64,000 nt of DNA from an uncultured Collinsella sp. (GCA_900541795.1 UQLC01000010.1:4669-68668), one strand, 5' to 3'. Shown: positions 33,352 through 49,591, numbered from the stretch's first letter. Notes: a model not told the origin generated them from the sequence alone. Numbers and translations are program-made.

Positions 33352-34352
33352 CACCGGACATCGCCCCCCGAAGCGGGGCGAACGTCGAGAAGGCAGCGCC
33401 CATCCCAGGTGGCGGCCCATGCGCCGCCCGGCTCGGTATGCACGTCGAAGTATCCCATTTTCGGGACAGCTAGCTCGGAGAGCAGCGCTTTCACGGTACC
33501 CGCGTGAACGACGAAGACGGCGCGCCCACTCCCCTGGGCACACCCCGATTCGCACGCCTCCCGAAACGCCGCGACGACGCGGCGGGTGAAATCGCTCTTG
33601 CCCTCGCCATGCGGGCAGCGCGTCTCGCACCAGGAGTCTACCCAGGCGCGGTAGCGCGCATCCTCTTTAAGCTCGGCGGCGCTTCGCCCCTCGAAGTCGC
33701 CGAAATCCATCTCGCGCAGACCGGGGCACGCCATAAGCTCCGCGTTCGGGAAGAGAATGCGCGCCGTCTGGTCGGCGCGAGCCATGCCGCTCGTGATAAC
33801 ACGGTACACGTCACGATCGCACGCGAGGTCGCGCAAAGCGCGCTCGCCCGCGCTCGACAGGGGCTCGTCAGTGCCCGCCCCGCTGTAGCGATGGTCTTCC
33901 GTGCCCGCTGTGGCACCATGGCGCACGAAGACGACTTCCAAAGGCGCGACCGCGCCCTGCGTCCCTCGAGGCGCATCGGCAAGGTTTCCTTTGATGACCT
34001 GGGGAATCCCGCACGTCATGCGCACGACGACGTCGGCGCGCGCAGCGAGCGCGCATCCCAGGCGCCCCGCGCGCTCGCGCCATTGGGCGTCTTCCGCACG
34101 CATGGGGACGACCCCCGAGCCCACCAAGGACAGAATCACTGCGTCGAAGCCGATCAGCCGCTCGAGCGCCCGGTCAGCGTCGAGCGCGCGTACGAGTTCC
34201 TCAGCACGGTACGCGACGCGGCCGGCAAAAGCCGCGGGCACGCCGCCCTCCGCAAGCTGCGCCGCGTCGACGAAATCGTCCGCCGCGAACCCGAGCCTTT
34301 CGCACACGAAGGTCCTCTTCCCCGAACGCGCGCCACCTACCACGAGCATCAT
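33351..34352 (-). CDS. cobC: fusion of a shortened CobU-like P-loop domain with alpha-ribazole phosphatase (histidine phosphatase, CobC)
   Basis: 333 aa. The N-terminal 125 aa read MMLVVGGARSGKRTF...VGSGVVPM...GIPQVIKG, which is CobU-like. The C-terminal part has VVFVRHGATAGT (RHG motif) and the rest of a histidine-phosphatase fold. The ATG overlaps the cobS stop. Confidence 0.75.
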   Translation of the reverse strand: MMLVVGGARSGKRTFVCERLGFAADDFVDAAQLAEGGVPAAFAGRVAYRAEELVRALDADRALERLIGFDAVILSLVGSGVVPMRAEDAQWRERAGRLGCALAARADVVVRMTCGIPQVIKGNLADAPRGTQGAVAPLEVVFVRHGATAGTEDHRYSGAGTDEPLSSAGERALRDLACDRDVYRVITSGMARADQTARILFPNAELMACPGLREMDFGDFEGRSAAELKEDARYRAWVDSWCETRCPHGEGKSDFTRRVVAAFREACESGCAQGSGRAVFVVHAGTVKALLSELAVPKMGYFDVHTEPGGAWAATWDGRCLLDVRPASGGDVR

Positions 34353-35116
34353 AGGAGCATGCCCCCCGCCACCAGCATGGCAAGCATCGCGAGCTCGGCC
34401 CATTGCAGAAACCATCCAGCCAAATCCCCCGTCACCCCGCCGAAGCGGGACAGGGCAACATGGCGGTACCACGCGAGCGCCAAAAGCCCCGCCACCGCCA
34501 TAAGGGCGCCGACGGCCTGAGCGCACGCGACCATCCCTGCAGCCGAAGCCGCAGCAAAAGCGCAAAGCGGCACGACGATCGCCGCGCGCTTCTTCGCAGG
34601 CGAAAGCCCCGCGGCCATGCCGTCCGCCCGCGCGGCAGGCCAGCATTCTACGGCGAGCCCCGAAAGCGCGCGGGAGAACACGAGCGAGCACAGAAGCGCG
34701 AGGAACGCCCCCGCCGTAAGCGGCAGCGCGGTGAACAGGGAAAACTGCAGAATAAGGTACATGACAACACCAATGACCCCGAAGGCGCCCGCCCGCGGGT
34801 CGTGCATGATCTCGAGCTTTCGCTCGCGCGGGGCCCAACTTGCAAGCGCATCGGAGGTGTCGCAGAGCCCGTCTAGGTGGATGCCTCCCGTCACCGCCAC
34901 AGGCAGCGCCACGAGCACGGCCGCGACGATGGTCGCAGGCACACCGAGCAGGTTCGCCACGTGCCCCCACACCGTCATGAGGAAGCCTTCCGCAAGGCCC
35001 ACCAGGGGAAACGCGGCAAGCGCATGGGTTGACCCGAAATCGGTCCAGGCCGATTTCGGGACGGGGATGCGCGAGAACGTTCCGAACGCCGCGCCGATTG
35101 CCTCTGCTATCTTCAC
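34349..35116 (-). CDS. cobS: adenosylcobinamide-GDP ribazoletransferase (cobalamin synthase)
   Basis: 255-aa polytopic membrane protein, FGTFSRIPVP, GGIHLDGLCDTSDA. GTG 35116 overlaps the cobU stop (GTGA). Confidence 0.85.
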   Translation of the reverse strand: MKIAEAIGAAFGTFSRIPVPKSAWTDFGSTHALAAFPLVGLAEGFLMTVWGHVANLLGVPATIVAAVLVALPVAVTGGIHLDGLCDTSDALASWAPRERKLEIMHDPRAGAFGVIGVVMYLILQFSLFTALPLTAGAFLALLCSLVFSRALSGLAVECWPAARADGMAAGLSPAKKRAAIVVPLCAFAAASAAGMVACAQAVGALMAVAGLLALAWYRHVALSRFGGVTGDLAGWFLQWAELAMLAMLVAGGMLL

Positions 35117-35661
35117 CTTGTAGGTCCTTCGCCTTTCATCCACACGGGAATCCCGCATACCACTTCGACAGCGCAGTCGGCCAGCGCCGACACGCCCGCG
35201 TTCACGCGCGCGAGCGCGCGCCTCCATACCTCGGTCCCCTCATCGTAGCGCATCCCATCGGCGAACACGTCGACGGTGACAACCACCGTATACGCAGCGG
35301 CCTGAGCGAGCCGTTCGATGCCTCCGAGCACCTCGCGCGCCACAGCGTCGGGGTCGCGTGGGGACAAGCCGGCTTCCGCGAAAAGCTCGTTTGCAACCAG
35401 GTTGCCCACGTCCTCCAAAAGAAGCGTGCAGCCGCGCGGAAGCCCGGGCACTGCGGCGCCCACGTCACGCGTGCGCTCGAGGGTGGAAAACCCCTTGCCC
35501 TCGCGCAGCGCCCGATGGCGCGCGATGCGGCGGGCGCCCTCTTCCCCGAAGGGCTCCATCGTTGCCAGGTACACGCGAGGGCCGTCGTGCCCGAGGCACA
35601 AGGACTCGGCGTAGGCGCTCTTACCGCTCGCGGCGGCGCCGATAACGAACGTCACCGCCAT
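35113..35661 (-). CDS. cobU: adenosylcobinamide kinase / adenosylcobinamide-phosphate guanylyltransferase
   Basis: 182 aa, MAVTFVIGAAASGKS (intact P-loop), ...CGIPVWMKG. It overlaps the cobT 3' end by 10 nt. Confidence 0.9.
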   Translation of the reverse strand: MAVTFVIGAAASGKSAYAESLCLGHDGPRVYLATMEPFGEEGARRIARHRALREGKGFSTLERTRDVGAAVPGLPRGCTLLLEDVGNLVANELFAEAGLSPRDPDAVAREVLGGIERLAQAAAYTVVVTVDVFADGMRYDEGTEVWRRALARVNAGVSALADCAVEVVCGIPVWMKGEGPTR

Positions 35662-36800
35662 TTCCCGGCCTCGAAATGCTCGTAAGCAGCCATGCCAGTC
35701 GCCGTGAACGTCTTCCCATCCCGGTACACGCACAGCGCCGAATCCAGAAGGGGCAGATACGCCATGGCGCCCGCGCCCTCGCCCAAGTGCATGCCTGCGT
35801 CGAGGGGTGCCTTTATGCCGAGCTCGCGAAGGAGCTCCTGGCTTGCGGGTTCGCTTGATGCGTGGGTGCCCACGAGGTAGCCCAAGGCGTTGGGGCACAG
35901 GCGCGCCGCGCACAGAGCCGCCGTGCAGGATATGACCCCGTCGAGGAGTGCCGGCGCCTTCGAGGCCGCGGCCCCCAGGTAGAAGCCGCACATCGCCGCA
36001 ATGTCGAAGCCGCCCACCTTCGAGAGCACGTCGATCGGGTCGGCGGGATCGGGCGAGTTCGCGTCGATAGCGCGCTCGACCACGTCGCGCTTGCGCGCGA
36101 GCGAGGCGTCCGAGAGCCCCGCGCCGCGCCCGACGAGGCTCCGCGCGTCCGCCCGGATGAGCACTGCGGCCACCGCCGCCGAGGTGGTCGTGTTGCCGAT
36201 GCCCATCTCGCCCGCGGCGAGAAGGCGCACGCCGGCGCGGGCAAGCCCGCACGCGACGGCGATTCCGACCTCGATCGCGCGCACGGCCCCATCGCGAGAC
36301 ATAGCGGAGCCGTGCGCGATGTTGCCGCTCCCCCGCCGCACGTTCGCGCGCACCATGCGCGCGTCTTCTATGCCCCGGGCCATACCCACGTCGACGGGCA
36401 CGACCTCGGCACCCGCGAACGCCGCCATGCGGCAAGCGCTTGTGGCCCCCTCGCACATGTTGCGCGCGACGGCTCGCGTCACGTCTTGCCCGCTTTGCGA
36501 CACGCCTTCGGCAACGACCCCGTTGTCGGAGAAGAATACCGCGAGCGCACGGGGGAACTCGGCCACCTCGGCGCTCCCCTGAGCTGCGGCGATACACGCG
36601 ACGGCGTCTTCAAAGTCGCCCAATCCCCCCAAGGGGTGCGCGATGGAGTCCCACGCGGCGTACGCGGCGGCGCGGGCGCACTCGTCTGCGGGCGCGATCC
36701 GGGAGAGCGCGGCTTCGAGCACGGCGCCCGGCGCCGACGAGAACGCGCGCTCGACTTCCTCGCGGATGCAGGCAAGCGCGGTTTCGGTTGCCTCAGCCAT
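35652..36800 (-). CDS. cobT: nicotinate-nucleotide--dimethylbenzimidazole phosphoribosyltransferase
   Basis: 382 aa, AAGEMGIGNTTTSAAV, GGFDIAAMCG, HLGEGAGA. RBS gaggag lies upstream. Confidence 0.9.
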   Translation of the reverse strand: MAEATETALACIREEVERAFSSAPGAVLEAALSRIAPADECARAAAYAAWDSIAHPLGGLGDFEDAVACIAAAQGSAEVAEFPRALAVFFSDNGVVAEGVSQSGQDVTRAVARNMCEGATSACRMAAFAGAEVVPVDVGMARGIEDARMVRANVRRGSGNIAHGSAMSRDGAVRAIEVGIAVACGLARAGVRLLAAGEMGIGNTTTSAAVAAVLIRADARSLVGRGAGLSDASLARKRDVVERAIDANSPDPADPIDVLSKVGGFDIAAMCGFYLGAAASKAPALLDGVISCTAALCAARLCPNALGYLVGTHASSEPASQELLRELGIKAPLDAGMHLGEGAGAMAYLPLLDSALCVYRDGKTFTATGMAAYEHFEAGKWR

Positions 36801-38175
36801 GCCGTCTCCTCTCTGCGAACGACGCTGCGGCAGACGCGAACGCGCGCGCAACGTCGGGGTTCGCAGGATAGTACACATGCGGGAAGCCCGCAACCAGGGA
36901 CGGGGTAGTCGTCATGCACGGCCAGCCCTTGTCGCGCCGGGGCTTTTGCGCCCAAAAGTCGCCGCCCGGGCAGGTGGACTGCCAGTAGTGGAACTCGTGC
37001 GCGCGGATGCGTGTGCCGCGCGGCCCGTAGAGCCCGTCGCGTTGGGAAGTGAGCTCCACGTACCCGAAATGGGACAGCCTTCCCCCGTTCTCGCTTGCGC
37101 CCTCAAGGGCGCCCACAACAGGCCAGCGCCGCCCCTCGCTATCGGAGATTTCGCGCTGCAGGTACAGAAACCCACCGCATTCGGCAACCGTCGGCATGCC
37201 GGATTCCACCGCACGCCGCACCGCCTCGCGCATCGGCGCGTTCTCGGAGAGCTGCCGCACATGGAGCTCCGGGTAGCCGCCTCCCAGATAGAGGGCGCTT
37301 GCCCCCCGCGGCAACTCGCTATCACACAGGGGGCTGAAAAAGGCCAGCTCGCAACCCAGGTCCTCGAGCGCGCGCAGGTTCTCCTCGTAGTAGAACGAGA
37401 ACGCCTCGTCACGCGCGACGGCGACGATGGGCCGCGCTCCCGCGATCGGCTCCAACCGGTAAGGATCCTCGCGGATATCGGGTGCCGTCGCCGCTATTTC
37501 GAGCAAGCGGTCGACGTCGAAGCTCTTTTCCACCAGCTCGGCCATCTTGTCGATGCGCGCGGAGAGCTGCTCGACCTCGTCGGCGGTCACAAGCCCCAAA
37601 TGCCGGCTTTCGAGCGAGAACGCATCGTCGGCGGGGATATTCCCCAAAACCGCGACACCCGTGTGCTTCTCGATCGCAGGCTTCGCGTAGGCGCAGGCAG
37701 CGGCGCTCGTCTTGTTCAGCACGACGCCGCGCACGTTCGCACAAGGCAGGAACTCGGCGATGCCGCGGATTACGGCGGCGAGCGATAAAGACGCCCCGCG
37801 CCCGTTCACCACTAAAACGACCGGCGTTTCCGTGTCGCACGCAACCTGGTAGCTGCTCGCGTCGGCCACGCCGGGCGCCATGCCGTCGTAGAAGCCCATG
37901 GCCCCCTCGAGCACCGCGACATCCGCGCCCGCGGCGCCGCGTGCGAGCAGGGCGCGCAGCGTCGGGGCGTCGGTGAAGAAGCCGTCTAAGTTGCCCGAGC
38001 GCGCACCCACGACGCGGCGATGAAAGAGCGGGTCAATGTAGTCGGGGCCGCATTTGAAGGCCGCGCATGCGAGGCCGCGGCGCGCAAGCGCGCGCAGGAG
38101 CGCGCACGTAACGACCGTCTTGCCGCTCCCGCTCGAGGGCGCAGCGACCATGAAGCGAGGGATGGTCGTGCTCAC
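36793..38175 (-). CDS. cbiA: cobyrinate a,c-diamide synthase
   Basis: MVAAPSSGSGKTVVTCAL P-loop, and a C-terminal GATase domain (AECGGFLYL). GTG 38175 overlaps the cbiET stop (GTGA). Confidence 0.9.
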   Translation of the reverse strand: MSTTIPRFMVAAPSSGSGKTVVTCALLRALARRGLACAAFKCGPDYIDPLFHRRVVGARSGNLDGFFTDAPTLRALLARGAAGADVAVLEGAMGFYDGMAPGVADASSYQVACDTETPVVLVVNGRGASLSLAAVIRGIAEFLPCANVRGVVLNKTSAAACAYAKPAIEKHTGVAVLGNIPADDAFSLESRHLGLVTADEVEQLSARIDKMAELVEKSFDVDRLLEIAATAPDIREDPYRLEPIAGARPIVAVARDEAFSFYYEENLRALEDLGCELAFFSPLCDSELPRGASALYLGGGYPELHVRQLSENAPMREAVRRAVESGMPTVAECGGFLYLQREISDSEGRRWPVVGALEGASENGGRLSHFGYVELTSQRDGLYGPRGTRIRAHEFHYWQSTCPGGDFWAQKPRRDKGWPCMTTTPSLVAGFPHVYYPANPDVARAFASAAASFAERRRHG

Positions 38176-39521
38176 CGGGCGCCGCCTTCCCCACCTGCAC
38201 CACGCGCGCTGACGAGGAACACGGGGTTTTGCGCCTTCATAAGATGGTGCGAGCCTACAGCCTCGGCGCGGGCGGCCGACACCTGGCACGCCTCGAACCC
38301 CTTAAAGCGCGAACCCGAGAGGAGCGCGCACGCCTCGGAGAGCGTCTCAACGGTGACGCATGGCACGCACAGGCGAACCTGCGAGTTCTTCTCGAGCGCC
38401 GCCTCCACGATGGAGGGAAGCTCGCCCGCGCTCCCGCCGACGAACACGGCGTCGGGGACGGGCAGTTTCGTGAGCGCTTCGGGGGCGACACCGGGGACCG
38501 CATGCACGTTGCCGCACCCGAATGCATCCGCGTTCTCTCGGATGAGCCGCACGCCGGCCGCGTTGCGCTCGACCGCCCATACCGACCCCGTTCGCGCGAC
38601 GAGCGCCGCCTCGATCGACACGCTCCCCGTGCCGGCTCCGACGTCCCACACGGTGTCGGTCGCGGTAAGGCGCAGCTTCGCGAGCGCGACGGCGCGCACC
38701 TCCTGCTTGGTCATGGGAACGTCGCCGCGGATGAAGAGCTCGTCGGGAATGCCCGAGGAAGCGTACGGCCAGCGGGAGCTCGCGGCGCGTGATGCGCCCG
38801 CAGAGTCTGCCGCGAAAGAAGCCGCCGCGGGCGATGACGCGCCAGCCGGCGCCTCGGAGGCTGCGCTAGAGCCCGCAGGCGACCCGGCGCCGCCTGCGAA
38901 CTCGATAAGCATCACGTTCAAGTCGTCGAACGTCTGACCTGCGATTTCACTTGCGGTCGCGCAGGTGATGCGCTCGTCGGGGTACGACAGGCGCTCGGCC
39001 ACCGTCACGCGCGCGTCCCCGAAGCCCGCCTGCACAAGCTCGCCCGAAAGCCGCGAGGGGTCTTCCCCGCCCGACGTGGCGAGGAAGAGCTCGCCTGAGC
39101 GCTCGGCCTCGGCCACGATGTCGCACGCCACGCCGTGAGCGCTCGCAAAGCGCCAATCCTGCCATGGACGCGCGAGGCACGCGGCGAGATACGACGCTGA
39201 GCTTATGCCGGGAATGATACGCACGTCCACCTGCGCGTCGCCGGAGAGCGCCTCCACCAGGCGGCGCGCGCCGCTGAACAGCCCCACATCGCCCGTCATC
39301 AAGACCACGGCGCGCAGCCACGACGCCGCATCGGTGAGCGCGGCGACGATGTCCGCCGTCTTAACGAGCTCGCATCTCACCACGTCGGGCGGCACGTCGA
39401 TGCCGACGAGCGCGCGATGAGCGCCGATGACCACGTCGGCGATGTCGATCGCGTCAAGCGCCGCGCGCGAGAGCAAGTCGGGGTTTCCGGGCCCCGCCCC
39501 GATGATCGTTACCTTTCGCAT
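38172..39521 (-). CDS. cbiET: cobalt-precorrin-6B/7 methyltransferase-decarboxylase, CbiE-CbiT fusion
   Basis: The N-terminal tetrapyrrole methylase domain begins MRKVTIIGAGPGNPDLL. A Ser/Ala-rich linker follows. The C-terminal CbiT domain has VWDVGAGTGSVSIEAA. Confidence 0.9.
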   Translation of the reverse strand: MRKVTIIGAGPGNPDLLSRAALDAIDIADVVIGAHRALVGIDVPPDVVRCELVKTADIVAALTDAASWLRAVVLMTGDVGLFSGARRLVEALSGDAQVDVRIIPGISSASYLAACLARPWQDWRFASAHGVACDIVAEAERSGELFLATSGGEDPSRLSGELVQAGFGDARVTVAERLSYPDERITCATASEIAGQTFDDLNVMLIEFAGGAGSPAGSSAASEAPAGASSPAAASFAADSAGASRAASSRWPYASSGIPDELFIRGDVPMTKQEVRAVALAKLRLTATDTVWDVGAGTGSVSIEAALVARTGSVWAVERNAAGVRLIRENADAFGCGNVHAVPGVAPEALTKLPVPDAVFVGGSAGELPSIVEAALEKNSQVRLCVPCVTVETLSEACALLSGSRFKGFEACQVSAARAEAVGSHHLMKAQNPVFLVSARGAGGEGGAR

Positions 39522-40255
39522 GGAATCTCCCGATACCCGCGCGGCGTGACCATACGGCCGCCTACGCGCTTCGTGTCCGCGTTGCCGACGAACACGGTGG
39601 TGAACATGTCGGCGTCGATCTCCCCCAGCTCGGAGAGCCTGCACATGCCCGACTGCTGCCCCTCGCGCCCGATGTTGCGTACCCAACCGCAGAGCGTGTC
39701 GGGGGCCTTCCATTCGAGCATAATCTTCGCCGCGCGCGAGAGCCTGTCGGCGCGCTTTCTGCTGCGCGGGTTGTACAAACAGATGCAGAAGTCGGCGCTC
39801 GCCACGGCGGCGAGCCTGCGCTCGATGACCTTCCACGGCGTGAGAAGGTCGGAGAGCGACACGACCGCGAAGTCGTGGGCAAGTGGGGCGCCGAGCACCG
39901 CCGACCCGCTCTGGGCCGCGGTGGCCCCGGCGATAACTTCCACGTCTACATCGGGGTAGTCCTCCGCAAGCTCCAGCACGGGGCTCGCCATGCCGTACAC
40001 GCCCGCGTCACCGCTGCACACGAGCGCCACGGCTTCTCCGCTCTGCGCGCGTGAAAGCGCCAGGCGGCACCGTTCGACCTCGTGCATCATCGGCGTCGCG
40101 AGATGCGCCGCGTCGGGCACGGCGGCGAGCGCGAGCTCCACGTATTTCGTGTACCCCACAACGATGTCGGCGGCCTCGAGCGCGCGCCGGGCCGCAATCG
40201 TCATGCCGTCGGGGCCGCCCGGGCCGATCCCCACCACGAAGAGCTTTCCCATCAC
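39509..40255 (-). CDS. cbiH: cobalt-factor III / precorrin-3B C17-methyltransferase
   Basis: 248 aa, KLFVVGIGPGGPDGMT, SGDAGVYGMA, LYNPRS. Confidence 0.9.
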   Translation of the reverse strand: MMGKLFVVGIGPGGPDGMTIAARRALEAADIVVGYTKYVELALAAVPDAAHLATPMMHEVERCRLALSRAQSGEAVALVCSGDAGVYGMASPVLELAEDYPDVDVEVIAGATAAQSGSAVLGAPLAHDFAVVSLSDLLTPWKVIERRLAAVASADFCICLYNPRSRKRADRLSRAAKIMLEWKAPDTLCGWVRNIGREGQQSGMCRLSELGEIDADMFTTVFVGNADTKRVGGRMVTPRGYREIPCER

Positions 40256-41385
40256 CGCTCCTTAAACGAAAGTTCGATAGTTACCTTGGAAAACGCGACG
40301 GTCACGCCGCCGTGAGCGAGCTTCGGTAAGATAAGTTTGCCCCCGTCCGCGAGCGCCGCGCGCTCGCACACGTTGTCGACCCCCACAGTCGCGCGCACGA
40401 AATCAGATGGCGAAACGCTGCCTTCGACCTGCGACAACTCCTCTGCGGAATACGTCGCGAGCGGGATATTGCGCGCGCGGCAGAAGGCGAGCAAACCCTC
40501 CTCGTGCGCCTTCACGTCGATCGTCGCCGCCTCGCGCACGGCCGAAGGCGAGATGCCCGCCTGCCCGCACGCGAGAAGAAACGCTTCCCCGATCGCTTCG
40601 GCGCACGCACCGCGACGGCACCCTATGCCCGCAACGATGCAGGGCACAACAAGGCGAAGCGGCTCGGGCGCAGGCGCCTGCGCCCGCACGCCCGCCGGCT
40701 TCCCCGTCTCAGTGGTGGGAACGACCTCGCCCTTTGTCTCCGCCGCGCGAACGGTCGCACCTGCATTCGCGCCGGCGAACGGCGACACGACGATATCGGC
40801 CCGAGCGCGGTCGGACGCAATGTCAACCCCCTCAGGCGGCTGTCCCGAAATCGGCATGTCGGAATAGAGCGCCACGCGCCCGCCAGAAAGCAGCCGCGCC
40901 GACACTCGCTTGATGGCCTCGGGATTCGAAACGGCGAGCCCCGCACAGCGTGCCCACGTATCCACCGCCCACACGCCGCGGACGTCGGTCGCCGTGGTAA
41001 TGACGGGGATGGCCCCTGCCGCGCGTGCCACAGTTTGCGCAAGCTCGTTCGCACCGCCCAAATGCCCCGACAAAAGCGGGACGGCAAAGCGCCCCACCTC
41101 GTCGATCGCCACAACCGCGGGATCGTTTGCCTTCGAGGCGACATGCGGCGCGATCGCCCGCACGGCGATGCCCGCCGCGCCCACGAACAGAAGCGCGTCC
41201 GACGCTTCCCACGCGAGCGCCGTCCATGCGCGCAGGTCGGCCTTCCCCTCGCCGAACCCGCGCGAAACGGAAACGTCCCAGCCAGGGTCACCTTCACCTG
41301 ACTGCGCACAATCGGAAAGCGCGCGTGCGGTGCGCTCCGCCAACGCATACCCCCTCTCAGTGAACGCTATGCAGGAAACCCTCAT
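40252..41385 (-). CDS. cbiG: cobalt-precorrin-5A hydrolase
   Basis: 377 aa with CbiG N-terminal, middle and C-terminal segments: FVGAAGIAVRAIAPH, PLLSGHLGGANE, GIGCRRG, VDNVCERAAL. Confidence 0.85.
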   Translation of the reverse strand: MRVSCIAFTERGYALAERTARALSDCAQSGEGDPGWDVSVSRGFGEGKADLRAWTALAWEASDALLFVGAAGIAVRAIAPHVASKANDPAVVAIDEVGRFAVPLLSGHLGGANELAQTVARAAGAIPVITTATDVRGVWAVDTWARCAGLAVSNPEAIKRVSARLLSGGRVALYSDMPISGQPPEGVDIASDRARADIVVSPFAGANAGATVRAAETKGEVVPTTETGKPAGVRAQAPAPEPLRLVVPCIVAGIGCRRGACAEAIGEAFLLACGQAGISPSAVREAATIDVKAHEEGLLAFCRARNIPLATYSAEELSQVEGSVSPSDFVRATVGVDNVCERAALADGGKLILPKLAHGGVTVAFSKVTIELSFKER

Positions 41386-41619
41386 CTAGCGCACCACCAT
41401 CGTCGAGAAGTAGCTGCCCCGATCGGGCACATCGTCAAGCGAGCGGTACACGCGCTCGCCCGGAAGCCCACAGTCCTCTACAAGCTCGGCACCGTCGAAG
41501 GCGCCCTCCTCGCAAAGAAAGCGCTTCGTGTCCGCAAGCGAGCGGCGCGCCTTCATGACCACCTTCGTCCCCGGCCAGCCGATTGCGCGGCCCACCCCAT
41601 ACAGAACGCCTTTACTCAT
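41386..41619 (-). pseudogene. cbiL: remnant of the cobalt-factor II C20-methyltransferase gene (cbiL) with a large in-frame internal deletion
   Basis: 77 codons. MSKGVLYGVG... resembles a tetrapyrrole-methylase N-terminus. ...GLPGERVYRSLDDVPDRGSYFSTMVVR resembles the family's C-terminus. Only 227 nt separate cbiD from cbiG, so a full-length gene of about 230 aa cannot fit. Confidence 0.6.
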
Positions 41620-42796
41620 ACGTCGCCCCCAATTCCCCGATAACTGCATCGGCGCCCGACGTGCGGAAAATCTCGCGGCGCTCGGCGTCGAACACGACCG
41701 CGGCGATGTCGCATGCGCCCGCCGCGCGGCGGCGCAACCTGTCCTCGATTGCCGCAGCGAGCGAGGCGCGCGCAGCGTCCCCCACGCCGGCGGCCTCGAT
41801 TACCTCGAGCGCCGCCGTGGTCGTGACCGACGACATGATCTCGCGCACGGTCTTCGCGCCCGCGCCAGCCAAGGCCGCGTGAGCGGCCAGAATCTCCGCG
41901 CGGCAGTCGGCGGTACGCGAATGGGTGTCCATGATGCCGCCAGCGACCTTCACCAGCTTGCCGATGTGTCCCACAAGAAGGACATTGGTGAATCCCTCGC
42001 GAACGCAGCAATCAATCGCATCGCCCACAAAGTTGGAGATGAAGACCACCGGCGCACCGTTTAGGTGGAAATGCCCCGAGATGAACTGCCCGCCGTAGTT
42101 GCCGGGCGTGAGCACGACTCCGCGCCGCCCCATAGCCGCATGCTGCCGGATCTCGAGCTCGATGCTGTCGCGCAAGGCAGCGAGGCTGCGCGGCTCGACG
42201 ATGCCCGTCGTGCCCAGGATGGAGATGCCGCCCTCTATCCCCAGGTGCGGGTTGAAGGTCTTTTCGGCAAGGGCCACACCCTCGGGTACCGAAATCGTCA
42301 CAGCAATATTTCCAGAAAAGCCGTGCGCGGCGCACACCTCACGCACCGCCGAAGTAATCATCGCGCGCGGCGTCGCGTTGATGGCGGCCGCCCCCACCGG
42401 CTGCTCGAGCCCGGGCAACGTCACGCGCCCCACGCCCACGCCGCCATCGACAGAAACTTCCGATTCGTGCGCGGGCACGTCCTTGCTGCCCGCAGTACCC
42501 GTGCCCGACCCCGCATGTTCCACGCGCGCGTACACGAGCACGCCGTCGGTCACATCGGCATCGTCGCCTGCGTCCTTTCGCACGGCGCACTGGGCGCACC
42601 CCTCGCCGATGCATGCGTCGACCACGTTCGCCTCGACGGGCAGCCCGCCGGGGGTGACGATCGACACGCGGCCGACGGGCTTTCGTGACAAGAGCATCTC
42701 GCAGGCCGCCTTCGCCGCGAGCGCGGCACAGCTCCCCGTGGTGTAGCCACAGCGCAGGCGGGTCGTCCCGGTATATATGTAGTGCTCGAAGGCCAC
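41612..42796 (-). CDS. cbiD: cobalt-precorrin-5B (C1)-methyltransferase
   Basis: 394 aa from GTG 42796, LRCGYTTGSCAAL, GGVGVGRVT, GIEGGISILGTTGIVEP. Confidence 0.9.
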   Translation of the reverse strand: MAFEHYIYTGTTRLRCGYTTGSCAALAAKAACEMLLSRKPVGRVSIVTPGGLPVEANVVDACIGEGCAQCAVRKDAGDDADVTDGVLVYARVEHAGSGTGTAGSKDVPAHESEVSVDGGVGVGRVTLPGLEQPVGAAAINATPRAMITSAVREVCAAHGFSGNIAVTISVPEGVALAEKTFNPHLGIEGGISILGTTGIVEPRSLAALRDSIELEIRQHAAMGRRGVVLTPGNYGGQFISGHFHLNGAPVVFISNFVGDAIDCCVREGFTNVLLVGHIGKLVKVAGGIMDTHSRTADCRAEILAAHAALAGAGAKTVREIMSSVTTTAALEVIEAAGVGDAARASLAAAIEDRLRRRAAGACDIAAVVFDAERREIFRTSGADAVIGELGATYE

Positions 42797-42797
42797 G

Positions 42798-43589
42798 CTA
42801 GCTGCTCGCCTTCCGATACCCCGTGGCAAACGAAGGGTCGTAAAGCTTGCTACGCTCGTACGACTCCGCTTGCGCGCCGTCGTACGCAAGTCCGCCGCGA
42901 GCTCCGAGCACGCGGCCCACCACCACGAGCGCCGTGCGGTCGATGCCCTCTCGCGCGCCCGCATCGGCGAGCGTGCCCACTGTGCAGCGCACCACGCGCT
43001 CCTCAGGCCAGGTCGCCTTGTACACGAGCGCCGCCGGCTCATCGGAGCTGCGGCCCGCGGCCAAAAGCTCGGCGGAAAGCTCGGCGAGCATACCCGAGCT
43101 CAGGAAGATGACCATAGTCGAGCCGCTTTCCGCCATGGCGCGCATGCCCTCGCCCGCGGGCATGGGGGTGCGTCCGGAAAGCCGCGTGATTACGACCGAC
43201 TGGCTGATTCCCGGCAGCGTGTATTCCTGGCGAAGCGCCGCCGCGGCACCGCAAAAGCTCGACACGCCGGGCACCACCTCGTAGTCCACGCCGCGCGCGT
43301 CGAGCGCGTCCATCTGCTCCTGGATGGCGCCGTACAGGCACGGGTCGCCCGTGTGCAGGCGCACCACTTCCTCGCCCCGCGCATCTGCCGCGCACATCAC
43401 GTCGAGCACTTCCTCCAAGGTCATGTGCGCGCTGTCGTAGACGACGCAGGATTCCTTGCACTCGGCGAGCAGCTCGGGGTTCACAAGGCTCCCCGCCCAA
43501 ACGACCACGTCGGCCGCGCGCAGAAGGCGCGCCCCGCGCAGCGTGATAAGGTCGGCGGCGCCCGAGCCAGCGCCAACGATATGAATCAT
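42798..43589 (-). CDS. cbiF: cobalt-precorrin-4 C11-methyltransferase
   Basis: 263 aa from ATG 43589, MIHIVGAGSGAADLITLRG, LHTGDPCLYGA, VPGVSSF. This is the first gene of the minus-strand operon. Confidence 0.9.
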   Translation of the reverse strand: MIHIVGAGSGAADLITLRGARLLRAADVVVWAGSLVNPELLAECKESCVVYDSAHMTLEEVLDVMCAADARGEEVVRLHTGDPCLYGAIQEQMDALDARGVDYEVVPGVSSFCGAAAALRQEYTLPGISQSVVITRLSGRTPMPAGEGMRAMAESGSTMVIFLSSGMLAELSAELLAAGRSSDEPAALVYKATWPEERVVRCTVGTLADAGAREGIDRTALVVVGRVLGARGGLAYDGAQAESYERSKLYDPSFATGYRKASS

Positions 43590-43819
43590 CCGAGCCTTCC
43601 CTTCCCGTTTCTCATCGCAACCGTTGACGCCGCCATTCGCGCAGCGGACAAAACACGGCGCCTGCGGCGGCAATCGGCGCAAATACGCAGGCAGGAGGCG
43701 CAATGCCGCCCGCCCTGGCTTTGACACGTTCACAAGTGCCCACTATCATAGTAAAAGTTTCGGCAACGAGCATATGACAATCGGATAAAAGGAAATGACC
43801 GGCGCGGCGCCCGCACAGC

Positions 43820-43930
43820 CCGCGCTGGCTTGCGGAGGGAACCAGGTGGGAATCCTGGGCAAGGGACATTACTGTGTAGGACGCGCAGGCGAACCGCCTC
43901 GCGCCCCAAGCCAGACTGCTTCGCCTTTTC
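43820..43930 (+). promoter_or_regulatory. candidate cobalamin riboswitch upstream of the cbiK / corrinoid-uptake operon
   Basis: gAGGGAAccaGGTGggAATCCtggGCaagggacattACTGTgtagg ... ccAAGCCAGActGC. This matches the conserved AGGGAA / GGTG.(A)AATCC..GC / ACTGT / B12-box-like AGCCAG blocks in the right order. ctggcttg (43825-43832) can pair with caagccag (43907-43914). The B12 box is shorter than the consensus. Confidence 0.55.
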
Positions 43931-44047: not shown

Positions 44048-44974
44048 ATGTCCGACCAGATGTCACGCCGCGGCTTCATGGGCGCCGCAGCAACCGGAGC
44101 ATTCGCGCTCGCCGGAGTCGCGCTCGCGGGCTGCTCCAGCACCTCCGCGAGTTCCGAGAAATCGAGTGAAAAGGAGAAGGCCGTGAAGCCGGTCATCCTC
44201 GTCACGAGCTTCGGCACGAGCTACAACGACTCGCGCCACATCACCATCGGCGCCATCGAAGACGCTATCCGCGAGAAGTACTGGCAGGACTACGACATCC
44301 GCCGCGCCTTCACCGCGCAGATCATCATCGACAAGCTGAAGAAGCGCGACGGCATCACGATCGACAATATGACCGAGGCGCTCGACCGCTGCGTGGAAGA
44401 CGGCGTGAAGGAAATTGTCGTGCAGCCGACGCATCTCATGGCTGGCCTGGAATACGCCGACGTGAAAGACGAGCTCGACAAGTACGCCGACAAGTTCGAC
44501 AAGATCTCGCTCGGCGACCCGCTGCTCACCTCCGACGACGACTACAAGAAGGTGGCCGCAGCCATTAATGAGAACATGGCGTCCTTCGACGACGGCAAGA
44601 CGGCGCTGTGCCTCATGGGCCACGGCACCGAAGCCGATTCCAACGCCGACTATGCCAAGATGCAGGAAGTGTTCCAGAACGAGGGCTTGACGCAGTTCTT
44701 CGTCGGCACCGTCGAGGCTGAGCCGACCTGCGAGGATGTTATCGCCGCCGCGAGCGCCGCAGGGTACAAGAAGGCCGTGCTCGCGCCGTTCATGGTGGTC
44801 GCGGGCGACCACGCGAACAACGACATGGCAGACGAGACCGACCCCGACAGCTGGGCTGCGAAGTTCGTGGCCGCTGGCTTCGAAGTGACGTGCCTGCTCC
44901 AGGGTCTGGGACAGAACGCCGCGGTCGACGACATCTACGTCTCGCACGTGGACGACGCCATCGCCAAGCTGTAA
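44048..44974 (+). CDS. cbiK: sirohydrochlorin cobaltochelatase CbiK homolog carrying a Tat signal and lipobox (predicted exported lipoprotein)
   Basis: MSDQMSRRGFMGAAATGAFALAGVALAGCSS contains a twin-arginine motif and the lipobox LAGC. The full CbiK fold follows: VTSFGTSY, RRAFT, LMGHGTE, PFMVVAGDHANNDMA, DSWAAKF, GLGQN. RBS aggaaagga lies upstream. Confidence 0.85.
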   Translation: MSDQMSRRGFMGAAATGAFALAGVALAGCSSTSASSEKSSEKEKAVKPVILVTSFGTSYNDSRHITIGAIEDAIREKYWQDYDIRRAFTAQIIIDKLKKRDGITIDNMTEALDRCVEDGVKEIVVQPTHLMAGLEYADVKDELDKYADKFDKISLGDPLLTSDDDYKKVAAAINENMASFDDGKTALCLMGHGTEADSNADYAKMQEVFQNEGLTQFFVGTVEAEPTCEDVIAAASAAGYKKAVLAPFMVVAGDHANNDMADETDPDSWAAKFVAAGFEVTCLLQGLGQNAAVDDIYVSHVDDAIAKL

Positions 44975-45119: not shown

Positions 45120-45653
45120 ATGTTGAAGAAAACCCTCGCCTTCGCCCTGTCAGCGGCGCTTTTTGCGTTCTCGCTCGCCGGCTGCGGCGGAAATTCAATC
45201 GACAGCGCAAAGGCAAGCGATGCCGATTCCCAGGAAAAGACCGAACAGGCGGCCGATGCGCCCGAGGGCGCAAGCGCTGCCCCCATCACCGCCGACAAGG
45301 TGGCCGACGGCACCTATCCGATCACCGTAGATTCCAGCTCGAACATGTTCAGGATTGTGGACGCCCAGCTCATCGTGGAAAACGGCTCCATGCACTGCGT
45401 GATGACACTTTCCGGCACGGGCTACGGCAAGCTCTTCATGGGCACGGGTGACGAGGCTGCCACCGCGAGCGAGGCCGACTTCATCCCCTATGTGGAAAAC
45501 GCGGAAGGCAAGTACACCTACGACGTGCCCGTTGAAGCGCTCGACGAGGACACCGCCTGCGCCGCGTGGAGTATTAGAAAAGAGCAGTGGTACGACCGCA
45601 CGCTCGTGTTCGAATCCGCCGGCGTCGATCTGCGCGCCGACGCACTGAAGTAA
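45120..45653 (+). CDS. lipoprotein of unknown function (candidate extracellular ligand-capture protein)
   Basis: MLKKTLAFALSAALFAFSLAGCGG is a signal peptide with a lipobox. The mature part of about 150 aa looks beta-rich and contains YPITVDSSSNMFRIVDAQLIVENGSMHCVMTLSG. Confidence 0.7.
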   Translation: MLKKTLAFALSAALFAFSLAGCGGNSIDSAKASDADSQEKTEQAADAPEGASAAPITADKVADGTYPITVDSSSNMFRIVDAQLIVENGSMHCVMTLSGTGYGKLFMGTGDEAATASEADFIPYVENAEGKYTYDVPVEALDEDTACAAWSIRKEQWYDRTLVFESAGVDLRADALK

Positions 45654-45657
45654 CGCC

Positions 45658-47229
45658 ATGCGGTCGATTCTTCCCAAGGGGGAAAACAGGAAGCGCCACA
45701 GCATCGCGGCGCGCGCGATTGTCTGCGTTCTCGTCGCCCTGCTCGCGCTTCCTTTCGCGGGGTGCAGTGCGAGCCCGAACGCGACCGGTGGCACGGCGGG
45801 CTCTCAGGAATACACTGTGAGCGTCTCGCTTTCCGGTGGGTCAGGGCGTGCAAGCATCGCCTCGCCCACCACAATTGTGAAGGATGGCGACACCTACACC
45901 GCGACCATCACCTGGTCGAGTTCGAACTACGACAAGATGACCGTCGACGGCGTGGACTACGCGCCCGTAAACGACGGCGGCAACTCCACGTTCGAGATAC
46001 CCGTCACGCTCGACGAGGACATCGCCGTGTCGGCCGAGACCGTCGCCATGTCGACGCCGCACACCATAGACTACACGCTCTACTTCGACTCATCCACCAT
46101 GAAGGAGAAATCGGGCGACGAAGCAAGCGGCGGCTCCCCTGCGAGAACGGCTTCAAGCGCCGCGGCCGACTTCCACAACGCCGATTTGGGCTGCGGCTGG
46201 AAGCCGACGGGGACGCTTCAGCTTGAATACGCCGAGCACTTCACTGTCGACGAGTTCGAAGGCGGCTTGCGGCTTATCTGCGTTTCGAACGGTGAGCGCT
46301 TCCTCGTGGTACCGCAAGATGCGAAGGTACCTGATGGGTTGAGCTCTGACATCGCGGTCATAAGGCGCCCCGCCGACAAGGTGTACCTCGTGTCGTCGGC
46401 AACGATGTGCCTGGTCGACGCGCTCGATGCGAACGACAATATCTTCATGTCGGGCACGAAGGCCGACGATTGCTCGGTCGCGGGCTTCAAAAGCGCACTC
46501 GAAAGTGGGGCGATCGCCTACGGCGGCAAGTACAGCGCGCCCGACTACGAGCGAATATCGGCCTCGGGCTGCACGCTCGCCATCGAGAACACCATGATCA
46601 ACCACACACCCGATGTGAAGGAAAAGCTGCAGAAACTCGGGCTCGTCGTGCTCACCGAACAGTCGTCGAGCGAGCCCGAAGCACTCGGGCGCCTCGAGTG
46701 GATTAAGCTTTTCGGCGTCCTGTTCGACAAGGAAGACGAGGCCGCGCACCTGTTCAACGAGCAAAAGGCCCGCGTCGAGCAAACGTCGAGGCTCGCGTCG
46801 TCAGGTAAAACCGTGGCGTATTTCTACATTAACTCGAACGGGGCCGCCGTCACGCGGCGGGCGGGCGACTACGTGGCGCAGATGATCGAGCTTGCAGGCG
46901 GCAACTACGCGCTCGATGACGCGCAGACGGCGTCGACGTCAGGTTCGTCAGTAACGCTCGAAATGGAGCGCTTCTACGCGACGGCGAAGGATGCCGACAT
47001 CATCGTCTACAACGGCACCATCGACGAATCGGTTGCCACCTTAAACGACTTCGTAGGCAAAAACGCGCTATTGTCGCAGTTCAAAGCCGTGAAGAACGGC
47101 AACGTCTGGGTCACAAGCGCCGACATGTACCAGCAGATGACTTCTACCGCCGACATTATCGACGAGCTGCACGGGGCGTTCACCGGCGATGACGCGAGCG
47201 ACTTCCATTATCTGAGGAAGCTTGGCTAG
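45658..47229 (+). CDS. lipoprotein: N-terminal extra domain of about 130 aa fused to a cluster-A (FecB/BtuF-type) ABC substrate-binding domain
   Basis: Signal and lipobox LALPFAGCS. The N-domain reads EYTVSVSLSGGSGRASIASPTTIVKDGDTYTATITWSS.... The rest resembles an iron-siderophore/B12 periplasmic binding protein (ADKVYLVSSATMCL..., DADIIVYNG..., VWVTS). Confidence 0.85.
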   Translation: MRSILPKGENRKRHSIAARAIVCVLVALLALPFAGCSASPNATGGTAGSQEYTVSVSLSGGSGRASIASPTTIVKDGDTYTATITWSSSNYDKMTVDGVDYAPVNDGGNSTFEIPVTLDEDIAVSAETVAMSTPHTIDYTLYFDSSTMKEKSGDEASGGSPARTASSAAADFHNADLGCGWKPTGTLQLEYAEHFTVDEFEGGLRLICVSNGERFLVVPQDAKVPDGLSSDIAVIRRPADKVYLVSSATMCLVDALDANDNIFMSGTKADDCSVAGFKSALESGAIAYGGKYSAPDYERISASGCTLAIENTMINHTPDVKEKLQKLGLVVLTEQSSSEPEALGRLEWIKLFGVLFDKEDEAAHLFNEQKARVEQTSRLASSGKTVAYFYINSNGAAVTRRAGDYVAQMIELAGGNYALDDAQTASTSGSSVTLEMERFYATAKDADIIVYNGTIDESVATLNDFVGKNALLSQFKAVKNGNVWVTSADMYQQMTSTADIIDELHGAFTGDDASDFHYLRKLG

Positions 47230-48274
47230 CGTCATGAGAAGCCGGCTTTCCATGACATACGACGAATCGGGGCGCGCCGCGCGGTGTCGCGTCGTGACGG
47301 CGCTGCTCGCTGTTGTCCTCATCGTGCTCGTCGGGGCCAACCTGTGCATCGGGAGCGTGCTCGTGCCCGCAGACCACATCCCCGGAATCCTTTCGGGCGG
47401 CGCGGCCAATTCCATGGAAAGCCAAGTCATCTGGGAGATTCGCCTGCCGCGCGTGCTTTCAGCCGTGCTTCTCGGCGGGGCACTTTCGCTCTCCGGGTTC
47501 CTGCTGCAGACGTTTTTCAACAACCCCATCGCCGACCCGTTCATCTTGGGCGTCTCCTCGGGCGCAAAGTTCGTCGTCGCGCTTACGATGATCGTGCTTC
47601 TGGGCGCGAACCAGGCCATGTCCTCGCCGGCCATGGTGGCCGCAGCGTTTCTGGGATCGCTTATCACCATCGGCTTCGTGCTCCTCATCGCACGGCGCAT
47701 AAGTTCCATGGCCATGCTCATCGTGGCGGGCGTCATGGTGGGATACATCTGCTCGGCGGCGACGAACTTTCTCATCGCTTTCGCCGACGACCAGTCCATC
47801 GTGAACCTGCACAACTGGTCTTTGGGTAGCTTCTCGGGTTCGAGCTGGGACGACATCGCGGTCATCGTGGTCGTGGTGATCACCGTGAGCGCATGCGTAT
47901 TCGCGATATCGAAGCCCCTTTCCGCCTTCCAGCTGGGAGAAGCCTACGCGAAAAGCGTCGGCGTGAACGTCGCACGCTTCCGCGTGGTGCTCGTCCTTCT
48001 AGCGAGCATGCTCTCCGCTTGCGTGACCGCGTTCTCTGGTCCGGTGTCGTTCGTAGGCATCGCGGTTCCGCATCTCGTGAAGTCGGCGCTGAAGTCGTCG
48101 AAGCCCATCCGCGTGATTCCTGCGTGCTTCTTGGGAGGCGCCATCTTCTGCGCGGGTTGCGATTTGATCGCGCGCACGCTGTTCTCTCCCGTCGAGCTTT
48201 CCATCAGCGCCGTCACCGCCATCTTCGGCGCGCCGGTGGTTATCGCGCTCATGCTGAAGAAGCGGGTGAGGTAG
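47222..48274 (+). CDS. ABC permease, FecCD/BtuC family
   Basis: 350 aa with about 9-10 TM segments, IWEIRLPRVL, FVGIAVPHL. Confidence 0.9.
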   Translation: MASVMRSRLSMTYDESGRAARCRVVTALLAVVLIVLVGANLCIGSVLVPADHIPGILSGGAANSMESQVIWEIRLPRVLSAVLLGGALSLSGFLLQTFFNNPIADPFILGVSSGAKFVVALTMIVLLGANQAMSSPAMVAAAFLGSLITIGFVLLIARRISSMAMLIVAGVMVGYICSAATNFLIAFADDQSIVNLHNWSLGSFSGSSWDDIAVIVVVVITVSACVFAISKPLSAFQLGEAYAKSVGVNVARFRVVLVLLASMLSACVTAFSGPVSFVGIAVPHLVKSALKSSKPIRVIPACFLGGAIFCAGCDLIARTLFSPVELSISAVTAIFGAPVVIALMLKKRVR

Positions 48275-49591
48275 ATGGGGGAATTCGTGCCGCGGCCCAA
48301 AACGCTCGGAGGGGACATTCCATGCTTAGACAGTCCTGAGCTCGCACGAAAGCGTCAGAAGACACTTTCGGCTCGTGCGGAACTGCGCGCGGAACGCCTC
48401 CTTCGAGCGGAGTCGAACCTCGAAACCCCGGTCGAAACGCAGGCTGACGGAGCGCCGCTTTTCCGCATAAGCGACCTGTCGGCGGGCTACGACAAGAAGG
48501 TCGTAGTCGAAGGCGTCGATCTGGAGGTTCGCGCGGGCGACGTCGTGGCGCTCATCGGGCCGAACGGCTCGGGCAAGTCGACCATCTTGAAAACCATCAC
48601 ACGCCATCTGGCACCGCTTGCCGGCGCGGTCGAGCTCGACGGGCGGGAGATTTCCCGATGGAAGACGGCGGAGTTCGCAAGGAACCTTGCCGTTATGCTG
48701 ACAGATCGCCCCCGGACCGAGCTCCTCACCTGCCGCGATATCGTAGAGGCGGGAAGGCATCCCTACACCGGGCGAATGGGCACACTCTCGCCCGACGACC
48801 ATAGTCGGGTCGACGAGGCCATGAAAACCGCACATGTGGAAGAGCTCGCCGAGCGCGACTTCATGCAGATAAGCGACGGGCAACGCCAGCGCGTCATGCT
48901 CGCACGCGCCATCGCGCAGGATCCGCGCGTGCTCGTGCTCGACGAGCCCACGTCGTATCTCGATATCCGCTACCAGATCGACCTGCTGCGAATACTTCGC
49001 CACCTTGCGAAATCGCGAAATGTGGCTATCATCATGTCCATCCACGAACTCGAGCTCGCGCAGAAAAGCGCCGACAAGGTGATTTGCGTGAAGGACGGCC
49101 GGGTCTTCCGCGCCGGCGCACCCGAGGACATATTCACGCGCGAGACGATTGGCGAGCTCTACGGCCTTAAACATGGCACCTTCAACGAGCGCTTCGGCAG
49201 CGTGGAAATTGGGCGCCCACACGGCGATGCGCACACGTTCGTCATCGCCGGCGCAGGTACGGGGTCAGCTGTGTTTCGCCAGCTCATCCGGCAGGGCAAA
49301 GCGTTCTACGCGGGCGTTCTGCACGAAGGAGACATCGACTGCGAGCTCGCGCGCGACCTGGCGGCGGAATGCGTGGCCGAGCGCGCCTTCGAGACGATCG
49401 GAGATAAAACCATAGCCCGCGCCATAGAGCTCCTCATCCACTGCGCGCGCCTTATCGTGTGCCCCGCTGCCTTCGGCACCTTAAACGCCCGCAACGCAGA
49501 GCTCGTCGAGTTCGCACACTCGCATGGTATCGAGGTCATGCAAGCGTGCGAAGGCGCATCGGAGGATTCCCATTTGGAGTGGGAAGAATAA
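48275..49591 (+). CDS. ABC ATP-binding protein (FepC/BtuD type) with a 65-aa N-terminal extension and an extra C-terminal domain of about 140 aa
   Basis: Walker A GPNGSGKST, signature ISDGQRQRVMLARA, Walker B VLVLDEPTSYLD. The sequence then continues ...TFVIAGAGTGSAVFRQLIRQGKAFYAGVLHEGDIDCELA..., which is not part of a canonical NBD. The ATG directly follows the permease stop. Confidence 0.85.
   Translation: MGEFVPRPKTLGGDIPCLDSPELARKRQKTLSARAELRAERLLRAESNLETPVETQADGAPLFRISDLSAGYDKKVVVEGVDLEVRAGDVVALIGPNGSGKSTILKTITRHLAPLAGAVELDGREISRWKTAEFARNLAVMLTDRPRTELLTCRDIVEAGRHPYTGRMGTLSPDDHSRVDEAMKTAHVEELAERDFMQISDGQRQRVMLARAIAQDPRVLVLDEPTSYLDIRYQIDLLRILRHLAKSRNVAIIMSIHELELAQKSADKVICVKDGRVFRAGAPEDIFTRETIGELYGLKHGTFNERFGSVEIGRPHGDAHTFVIAGAGTGSAVFRQLIRQGKAFYAGVLHEGDIDCELARDLAAECVAERAFETIGDKTIARAIELLIHCARLIVCPAAFGTLNARNAELVEFAHSHGIEVMQACEGASEDSHLEWEE

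Follow-up and report, generated by a model that had tools for sequence, protein, structure and literature searches.

The window analyzed here, a 64,000-nucleotide stretch from an uncultured Collinsella sp. (GCA_900541795.1, UQLC01000010.1:4669-68668) that we assigned to Collinsella (C. aerofaciens complex), carries on its minus strand a tightly packed cbi operon in the order cbiF, cbiD, a short open reading frame (ORF), cbiG, cbiH, cbiET and cbiA, followed by nucleotide-loop and late genes and with cbiC and cbiJ in a distal position (27.8-29.1 kb). The first operon gene, cbiF, lies at 42798-43589 (-) (TIGR01465, 309.9 bits) and precedes cbiD at 41612-42796 (-) (PF01888, 4e-90; TIGR00312, 390 bits; called as 394 aa in relatives). 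On the far side of the short ORF stand cbiG at 40252-41385 (-), with CbiG_N, CbiG_mid and CbiG_C domains, and cbiH at 39509-40252 (-) (TIGR01466, 293.6 bits), the gene for the C17 methyltransferase and ring-contraction enzyme, which needs the product of CbiL. The cbiE-cbiT fusion (38172-39521 (-); TIGR02467 and TIGR02469) and cbiA (36793-38175 (-); identified as an ORF, with PF01656 and GATase_3 in the product of relatives) come next, and cbiC and cbiJ are found at 28541-29125 (-) (PF02570, 2.4e-76) and 27774-28481 (-) (PF02571, 2e-63), respectively. Several minor features of this region were recorded along the way: the Ala/Ser/Gly-rich linker between CbiE and CbiT (about 38800-38880 (-)) varies in length among species, with 15-18-nt indels that break gapless cbiET alignments and with cbiET gene calls of 415 to 490 aa in relatives; cobT (35652-36800 (-)) ends two codons later here than in nearly all relatives, a minor stop-codon shift; and an alpha-ribazole phosphatase (CobC-like) ORF at 33351-34352 (-) features an N-terminal CobU-like P-loop segment (MMLVVGGARSGKRTF), with a separate full CobU at about 35113-35655.

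Divergent from the operon, a cobaltochelatase homolog, cbiK, occupies 44048-44974 (+) (PF06180, 6.9e-79; 226 bits against NF047852, where the cut-off is 400). Its N-terminus, MSDQMSRRGFMG...LAGC, reads by eye as a twin-arginine signal with a lipobox (SRRGFMG...LAGC), and it is the only CbiK/CbiX-family gene (PF01903), and the sole class II chelatase, in the whole genome. A lipoprotein and an ABC importer (Peripla_BP_2, FecCD and ABC ATPase) are co-oriented with it at 45120-49591 (+), the importer ATPase being extended at both its N- and C-termini to 438 aa. A weak cobalamin-riboswitch-like match (43788-43915 (+); RF00174, 15.4 bits, E = 0.17, below the gathering score) faces this cbiK-importer operon; no cobalamin riboswitch reaches the gathering score anywhere in the window, and no aptamer was detected ahead of cbiF.

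The short ORF between cbiD and cbiG is a cbiL allele cut down to 77 codons by an in-frame deletion (delta codons 10-161), as established by sequence reading, a TIGR01467 match and alignment to full-length orthologs. It spans 41386-41619 (-), with its ATG at 41619 and its TAG at 41388-41386 on the minus strand, and its translation is exactly the 77 residues quoted earlier in the sequence-only reading of this DNA. Its start overlaps the cbiD stop (41612-41614) by 8 nt (ATGAGTAA) and the cbiG ATG (41385) directly follows its TAG (TAGATG), so that the intact frame, the overlap with cbiD and the abutment to cbiG described in that reading all hold. The profile search it had proposed for the peptide aligns residues 11-77 with positions 162-229 of the 230 in TIGR01467 (cobI_cbiL) at E = 1.1e-9; Pfam TP_methylase alone gives only E = 0.02, which we consider insufficient as sole proof of homology. 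The TIGR01467 match scores 38.1 bits, under a curated cut-off of 163.25 that pertains to whole proteins of about 230 positions, and a genome-wide search with the same model returns the same sub-cut-off remnant. The remnant's residues 9-77 match the C-terminal end of the 229-aa CbiL in sister species (residues 161-229) with 93-96% identity, remnant residues 11-77 corresponding to CbiL residues 163-229. Judged by profile and alignment, the homology to CbiL exceeds chance by far, and together with the orthologous slot between cbiD and cbiG it points to descent from cbiL. The proposal of a 77-codon cbiL remnant at this position is thus corroborated by the sequence, the TIGR01467 match and the sister-species alignment; of its proposed makeup the C-terminal part stands, whereas the supposed 30 or so N-terminal residues shrink to the first 9-10 (MSKGVLYGV[G]).

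Alignment to the full-length sister alleles reveals one clean 456-nt gap that removes codons 10-161 of the 229-codon gene. The catalytic middle said to be missing is indeed gone, and amounts to exactly 152 codons, so that the start codon and 9 N-terminal residues now continue in the same frame into the last 67-68 residues. At the junction, GTG(G)GC (41590-41595 (-)), we find an imperfect microhomology, GTGGGC/GTGCGC, whose copies lie 456 nt apart in full-length alleles; two junction variants occur among genomes, GTGGGC (as in the window) and GTGCGC, and the deletion therefore reads as microhomology-mediated, through one event or, given the two variants, through two. Over its entire length, full-length Collinsella CbiL can be aligned with the solved CbiL structures 2QBU, 8XJ3 and 2E0K. 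Three segments of the full-length sister alleles, GVGTGPGDPELLT, LGDPSIYATF and IPGVPSF, show conservation with 2QBU, and all three are located within the deleted codons. Compared with CbiL/CobI proteins at large (TIGR01467; 2QBU, 2E0K/2E0N, 8XJ3), the remnant shares its last 67 residues and the cbiD-cbiG slot of the sister enzyme but is without two thirds of the protein and scores 38 bits against a cut-off of 163. What has been removed includes the GxGxGD loop (GVGTGPGD), GDPSIY and PGVPSF, so that the motif set typical of CbiL (GxGxGD, GDP(S/F)xY, PGV(P/T)S) is absent from the ORF. In class III methylases these three motifs have roles in SAM and substrate binding. Because all of them are deleted, the remnant is predicted to be incapable of methyl transfer, and the ORF is, on this motif evidence, a catalytically dead allele of the gene for cobalt-factor II C20-methyltransferase. 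A search of the whole genome for another CbiL, as had been suggested, found none above the TIGR01467 cut-off in this 99.9%-complete assembly, nor a spare TP_methylase: the genes of this family are cbiF, cbiH, cbiE and, on another contig, rsmI (TIGR00096, 227 bits).

The same allele is widespread in the genus. Our sample comprised 93 species-level Collinsella genomes, namely the window, 12 loci from a genome search and 80 from genome contigs. The 77-codon allele is present, and open throughout, in 56 of the 93, including the C. aerofaciens type strain ATCC 25986 (L100); 35 have the full-length, 229-codon cbiL, one (L117) has a different in-frame deletion of 315 nt, and one (L123) has the 77-codon allele with a 32-nt insertion that, as read from the translation and the junction sequence, shifts the frame and ends the ORF on a TGA overlapping the cbiG ATG. 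The remnant frame is accordingly open in 56 of the 57 genomes with the 456-nt deletion. Of 11 operon-bearing Collinsella in an even sample of the order, cbiL is full-length in 7 and not in 4, and the 77-codon allele is common to about 36-60% of operon-bearing species. An assembly error as the cause of the short ORF, which the sequence-only reading had named as a way in which a full-length gene might be restored, is ruled out by the identical junction in 56 independent assemblies, isolates and long contigs among them.

The cbi operon is missing entirely from about half of the Collinsella species representatives, which makes the B12 module an accessory trait of the genus with three states: absent, with cbiL deleted, or complete. 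Two database records place related sequences in another family: one titled Gordonibacter pamelaeae CCUG 55131 (L063, NZ_JBHTBV010000011.1) contains an operon whose CbiG is 96% identical to that of Collinsella, and a 134-aa deletion allele (P0059) is listed as a hypothetical protein from Ellagibacter isourolithinifaciens; mislabeling, contamination or recent transfer is the likely explanation for both.

The deletion allele is an old and common polymorphism of the C. aerofaciens complex, transferred among backgrounds through homologous recombination. It occurs in more than 50 species-level lineages, and synonymous diversity in the remnant reaches 0.68 variants per synonymous site, against 0.44-0.57 in flanking genes. 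On a tree of cbiD and cbiG the allele state is clustered but requires no fewer than 9 changes, of which 5 fall on well-supported branches, and the C-terminal haplotypes RFLC and RILR are found on all allele types. Recurrent, identical deletion as the source of this patchy distribution was considered and judged unlikely: the microhomology is just 1-3 nt, the end points of other deletions differ, and the shared haplotypes show recombination.

Loss of cbiL is not confined to this one event. When the 77-aa peptide was searched against a protein collection, many proteins of 124 aa and 134 aa were recovered, which at the DNA level represent two further in-frame deletions in public assemblies: one of 315 nt, with a 9-nt microhomology (ACATCGTGC), and one of 285 nt, with a 4-nt microhomology (CGAC), each inside the same, otherwise intact operon. 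Loss of residues 47-141 is common to all three deletions, and the probability that three independent deletions would all be in frame is (1/3)^3 = 0.037 (1/27). Furthermore, two genomes from two genera of another family of the order (G070 and G038) have CbiC and lack CbiL: in G070 the operon reads cbiF-cbiD-cbiG-cbiH with about 45 nt in place of cbiL, and G038 has a contiguous cluster of cbiK, importer genes, cbiD, cbiF, cbiG, cbiH, cbiJ, cbiET and cbiA, with neither a cbiL in the cluster, nor a CbiL elsewhere in its genome, nor the precorrin-2-forming uroporphyrinogen methyltransferase SUMT. Together, these data demonstrate that cbiL has been lost repeatedly and specifically.

The fate of cbiL has to be seen against the steps that precede it. 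We examined 16 Collinsella genomes, the window genome and 15 species representatives, four of them with full-length cbiL, for the upstream genes. Porphobilinogen deaminase (HemC, PF01379) gave no match in any of the 16, whatever the cbiL allele, and no SUMT (TIGR01469) was found above the cut-off, the only matches being CbiF proteins at 158 bits, where 185 are required; both genes are present in other families of the order. The pair that marks a de novo producer, HemC and SUMT (CobA/CysG), is consequently missing from every tested Collinsella genome, and in the window genome so is a cytoplasmic sirohydrochlorin cobaltochelatase, to go by the export signal read by eye on its CbiK. Since HemC and SUMT are absent and the sole chelatase of the window genome appears to be exported, by gene content no tested member can make cobalt-factor II de novo, and none can make precorrin-2. 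The claim that an otherwise intact de novo route is blocked only at CbiL hence fails, because the 16 genomes lack HemC and SUMT and the chelatase of the window genome is a predicted exported lipoprotein. The gene content of that genome can be summarized as follows: precursor genes are absent; cbiH, cbiF, cbiG, cbiD, cbiJ, cbiET, cbiC and cbiA are present along with the loop genes; cbiL is non-functional; and a cobalamin-dependent MetH is encoded. The CbiK homolog of G038 also has an RR signal, and the same five cbiK-importer genes lie directly upstream of its cbiD in the same orientation. G070 has no cbiK or importer in the 9.4 kb upstream, so the linkage of cbi genes to cbiK seen in Collinsella and G038 is not universal.

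In spite of the missing methyltransferase, the five other ring genes measured show no sign of release from selection. Within the limits of tests that ignore recombination, whose frequency between the allele classes could hide a relaxation of selection where cbiL is deleted, pN/pS is equal in both cbiL classes for these genes and ranges from 0.13 to 0.35: for deletion and full-length genomes, respectively, it is 0.18 and 0.13 in cbiF, 0.26 and 0.27 in cbiD, 0.35 and 0.32 in cbiG, 0.15 and 0.14 in cbiH, and 0.25 and 0.27 in cbiA. Omegas from codon models, fitted on fixed nucleotide trees, agree with these values, and the early genes of deletion genomes have omegas of 0.27-0.53. Singletons in cbiF, cbiD, cbiG and cbiH that are private to deletion genomes number 200 synonymous and 178 nonsynonymous, with no difference from the full-length class (127 and 96; Fisher p = 0.35); among the 378, about 9 nonsense variants would be expected were the genes neutral, and 0 were observed. 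About 54 of the 56 deletion genomes have these genes undamaged. Exceptions are a deletion genome (L026, G016:C32) in which a 13-nt indel frameshifts cbiH and cbiK is shortened, and another (L088) with a stop at codon 112 of cbiET. No class-separating or compensating amino-acid sites were found in CbiF, CbiD, CbiG, CbiH or CbiA, where the largest frequency difference is 0.6. Since these downstream genes are under selection without cbiL, the enzymes that follow CbiL are still needed as proteins. Full-length cbiL is itself under purifying selection where it is kept (ML omega 0.13 in the N-terminal part), hence CbiL is not simply useless in the genus.

We consider it likely, with some reservation, that the ORF is a dead cbiL allele that is kept open for the sake of cbiG coupling, in a salvage-fed pathway in which CbiL alone has become dispensable. 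The arrangement is that of a coupled ORF: its start overlaps the cbiD stop, its stop abuts the cbiG start, its frame is open, and the deletions are multiples of 3 nt. Translation would have to continue through the interval between the cbiD stop and the cbiG start, maintaining coupling and avoiding polarity on the 15 kb of operon downstream. Because HemC and SUMT are absent and the window genome has no apparent cytoplasmic chelatase, the corrin-ring module would have to be fed by imported tetrapyrrole intermediates, for which the adjacent Tat-exported CbiK lipoprotein and ABC importer would provide the likely route. The point of entry in deletion lineages would then be CbiH, with a cobalt isobacteriochlorin that already bears the C20 methyl group, or some later intermediate, as starting material; full-length lineages could also use factor II-level compounds, which we propose as the reason why cbiL is still selected where present. 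In such a scheme CbiL would be next in line as the pathway erodes from the top down.

Several points speak against this account. One is the purifying selection on full-length cbiL in the lineages that keep it; another is that the remnant does not evolve neutrally, and coupling alone would not constrain its amino acids. With a neutral expectation, taken from the mutation spectrum at four-fold sites, of 29% synonymous changes, the in-frame variants of the remnant comprise 40 synonymous and 45 nonsynonymous changes (40/85) and 0 stops (omega about 0.48, P = 0.0004), and the same changes scored in the other two frames look neutral (omega 1.5 and 0.92). The GY94 omega of the remnant is 0.21, compared with 0.56 +/- 0.10 and a minimum of 0.39 in 40 neutral simulations on the same tree; as GY94+F3X4 omega is biased low in this GC-rich gene, to the point that neutral simulations give 0.56 and not 1, only the comparison with simulations counts, and for the same reason we do not take the likelihood-ratio test against omega = 1 (2 delta lnL about 66) at face value. 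It could thus be argued that the 77-aa CbiL tail is a selected, functional small protein, for instance one that partners or regulates a paralogous methylase or aids substrate hand-over, and that its last 68 or more residues are kept in frame for this reason; the openness of the frame in all but one deletion genome, where simulation puts stops in about 8 of 45 tips, and a remnant omega similar to those of cbiG and cbiA fit such a role. Yet the signal weakens when the count is restricted to variants seen only in the deletion class (23 synonymous, 30 nonsynonymous; P about 0.02) and is not significant for singletons; haplotypes are shared with full-length alleles, so that some of the variation probably passed selection in the intact gene before recombination brought it in; the AF2 model is poor (pLDDT 57.8, pTM 0.43, with the first 16 residues disordered); the fragment makes up only about half of the C-terminal domain; and G038 and G070 do without any remnant. 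A function of the peptide therefore strikes us as rather unlikely, and we read the data as weak amino-acid constraint (omega about 0.5) of uncertain origin.

Two further explanations turn on the pathway and not on the peptide. C20 methylation could be carried out by another enzyme, a promiscuous CbiF, CbiH or CbiE or a non-homologous methyltransferase, with cbiL redundant and lost neutrally; the selection that persists on downstream ring enzymes without CbiL and the repeated, specific nature of the loss would fit, as would the somewhat stronger match of Collinsella CbiF to the SUMT model (158 bits, compared with 134-141 for CbiF of other families). The window genome, however, has no spare TP_methylase, there is no consistent difference between classes in the five Cbi proteins compared, and in the absence of SUMT and HemC there would be no endogenous substrate anyway; moreover, cbiL is selected where present, which argues against a general substitute methylase and against redundancy across the genus. 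Replacement by a distant methylase, as raised in the sequence-only reading, thus loses its homologous candidates, as only cbiF, cbiH, cbiE and rsmI are available and no class-specific substitutions are seen, and what room is left is for a non-homologous enzyme; we regard substitution in any form as improbable. Still less probable, and in our view very unlikely, is the idea that a de novo pathway was broken recently and is on its way to pure corrinoid or cobinamide salvage, its early genes already useless. C. aerofaciens has been reported to require B12, the early-gene disruptions in cbiH and cbiET occur only in deletion genomes, and the operon is absent from many species, all of which this scenario would accommodate; against it stand the age of the allele, with synonymous diversity at or above that of flanking genes and sharing across dozens of lineages, the undecayed state of the downstream corrin-ring genes with their low omegas and missing stops, and the lack of HemC and SUMT in the tested genomes, by which the pathway would never have been de novo in this genus. 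Recent decay, as first proposed, is thus not borne out, and the dead, coupling-preserving allele in a salvage-fed pathway continues to be the account that we favor.

A bolder version of the entry point can be formulated, which we put forward tentatively and ourselves hold to be doubtful: a corrin-ring pathway that starts at CbiH from scavenged C20-methylated isobacteriochlorin (factor III, cobalt-factor III or cobalt-precorrin-3), captured and possibly metallated outside the cell by Tat-CbiK and taken up by the linked ABC importer, in Collinsella and at least two other Coriobacteriales genera, where the 77-aa tail may have a function of its own. To our knowledge, it has not been established that bacteria salvage intermediates lying between precorrin-2 and cobyrinic acid. 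Exported CbiK homologs have precedents in the periplasmic CbiK(P) of Desulfovibrio vulgaris and in IhtB of the Porphyromonas gingivalis ihtABCDE heme-uptake locus. What these systems have in common with the one described here is a CbiK-fold protein with an export signal beside a binding-protein, permease and ATPase importer; in contrast, cbiK of the window is arranged head to head with the cbi operon and is the sole chelatase, and that of G038 lies upstream in the same orientation.

Published surveys bear on the physiology of these bacteria. In the analysis of Shelton et al. (2019; PMC6461909), in which cbiL is one of three core ring markers, CbiL was annotated in 87% of tetrapyrrole precursor salvagers as opposed to 99% of producers. 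Collinsella resembles the salvager category in being host-associated and in having ring and nucleotide-loop pathways without precorrin-2 genes, but the category presupposes that the ring pathway is complete from CbiL or CbiK onward, whereas here CbiL is repeatedly and specifically lost, the only chelatase of the window genome is predicted to be extracytoplasmic, and the intermediate required is pushed beyond cobalt-factor II. Magnusdottir and colleagues (PMC4403557) predicted C. aerofaciens to be a B12 producer; Rodionov et al. (2019; PMC6593275) noted that it requires B12 for growth despite a "complete set" score and proposed precorrin-2 auxotrophy, citing a Porphyromonas gingivalis "enigma" as well; it was the type strain to which these producer and complete-set scores were given. 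The cbiL deletion is mentioned in neither of these two papers, and our full-text literature searches found none that notes it.

Because all other B12 genes are under selection, the bacteria with a deleted cbiL probably build B12 from a scavenged intermediate and not from scratch. For C. aerofaciens, a prevalent human gut species whose type strain, along with about half of the complex, has no functional CbiL, the published "complete" gene-set calls need correcting, and it is also important for annotation that short in-frame remnants can pass as "CbiL present". The category of tetrapyrrole precursor salvager (PMC6461909) would thereby be extended, with the prediction that exchange of early cobalt-isobacteriochlorin intermediates takes place in the gut and that such compounds are open to salvage, for which strains with full-length and deleted cbiL provide natural, isogenic-like pairs for testing. 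Should entry at CbiH prove true, it would add to the known ALA-level and cobinamide-level salvage of B12 precursors a new class that lies between them, and the presence or absence of cbiL would mark the intermediate that a lineage lives on.
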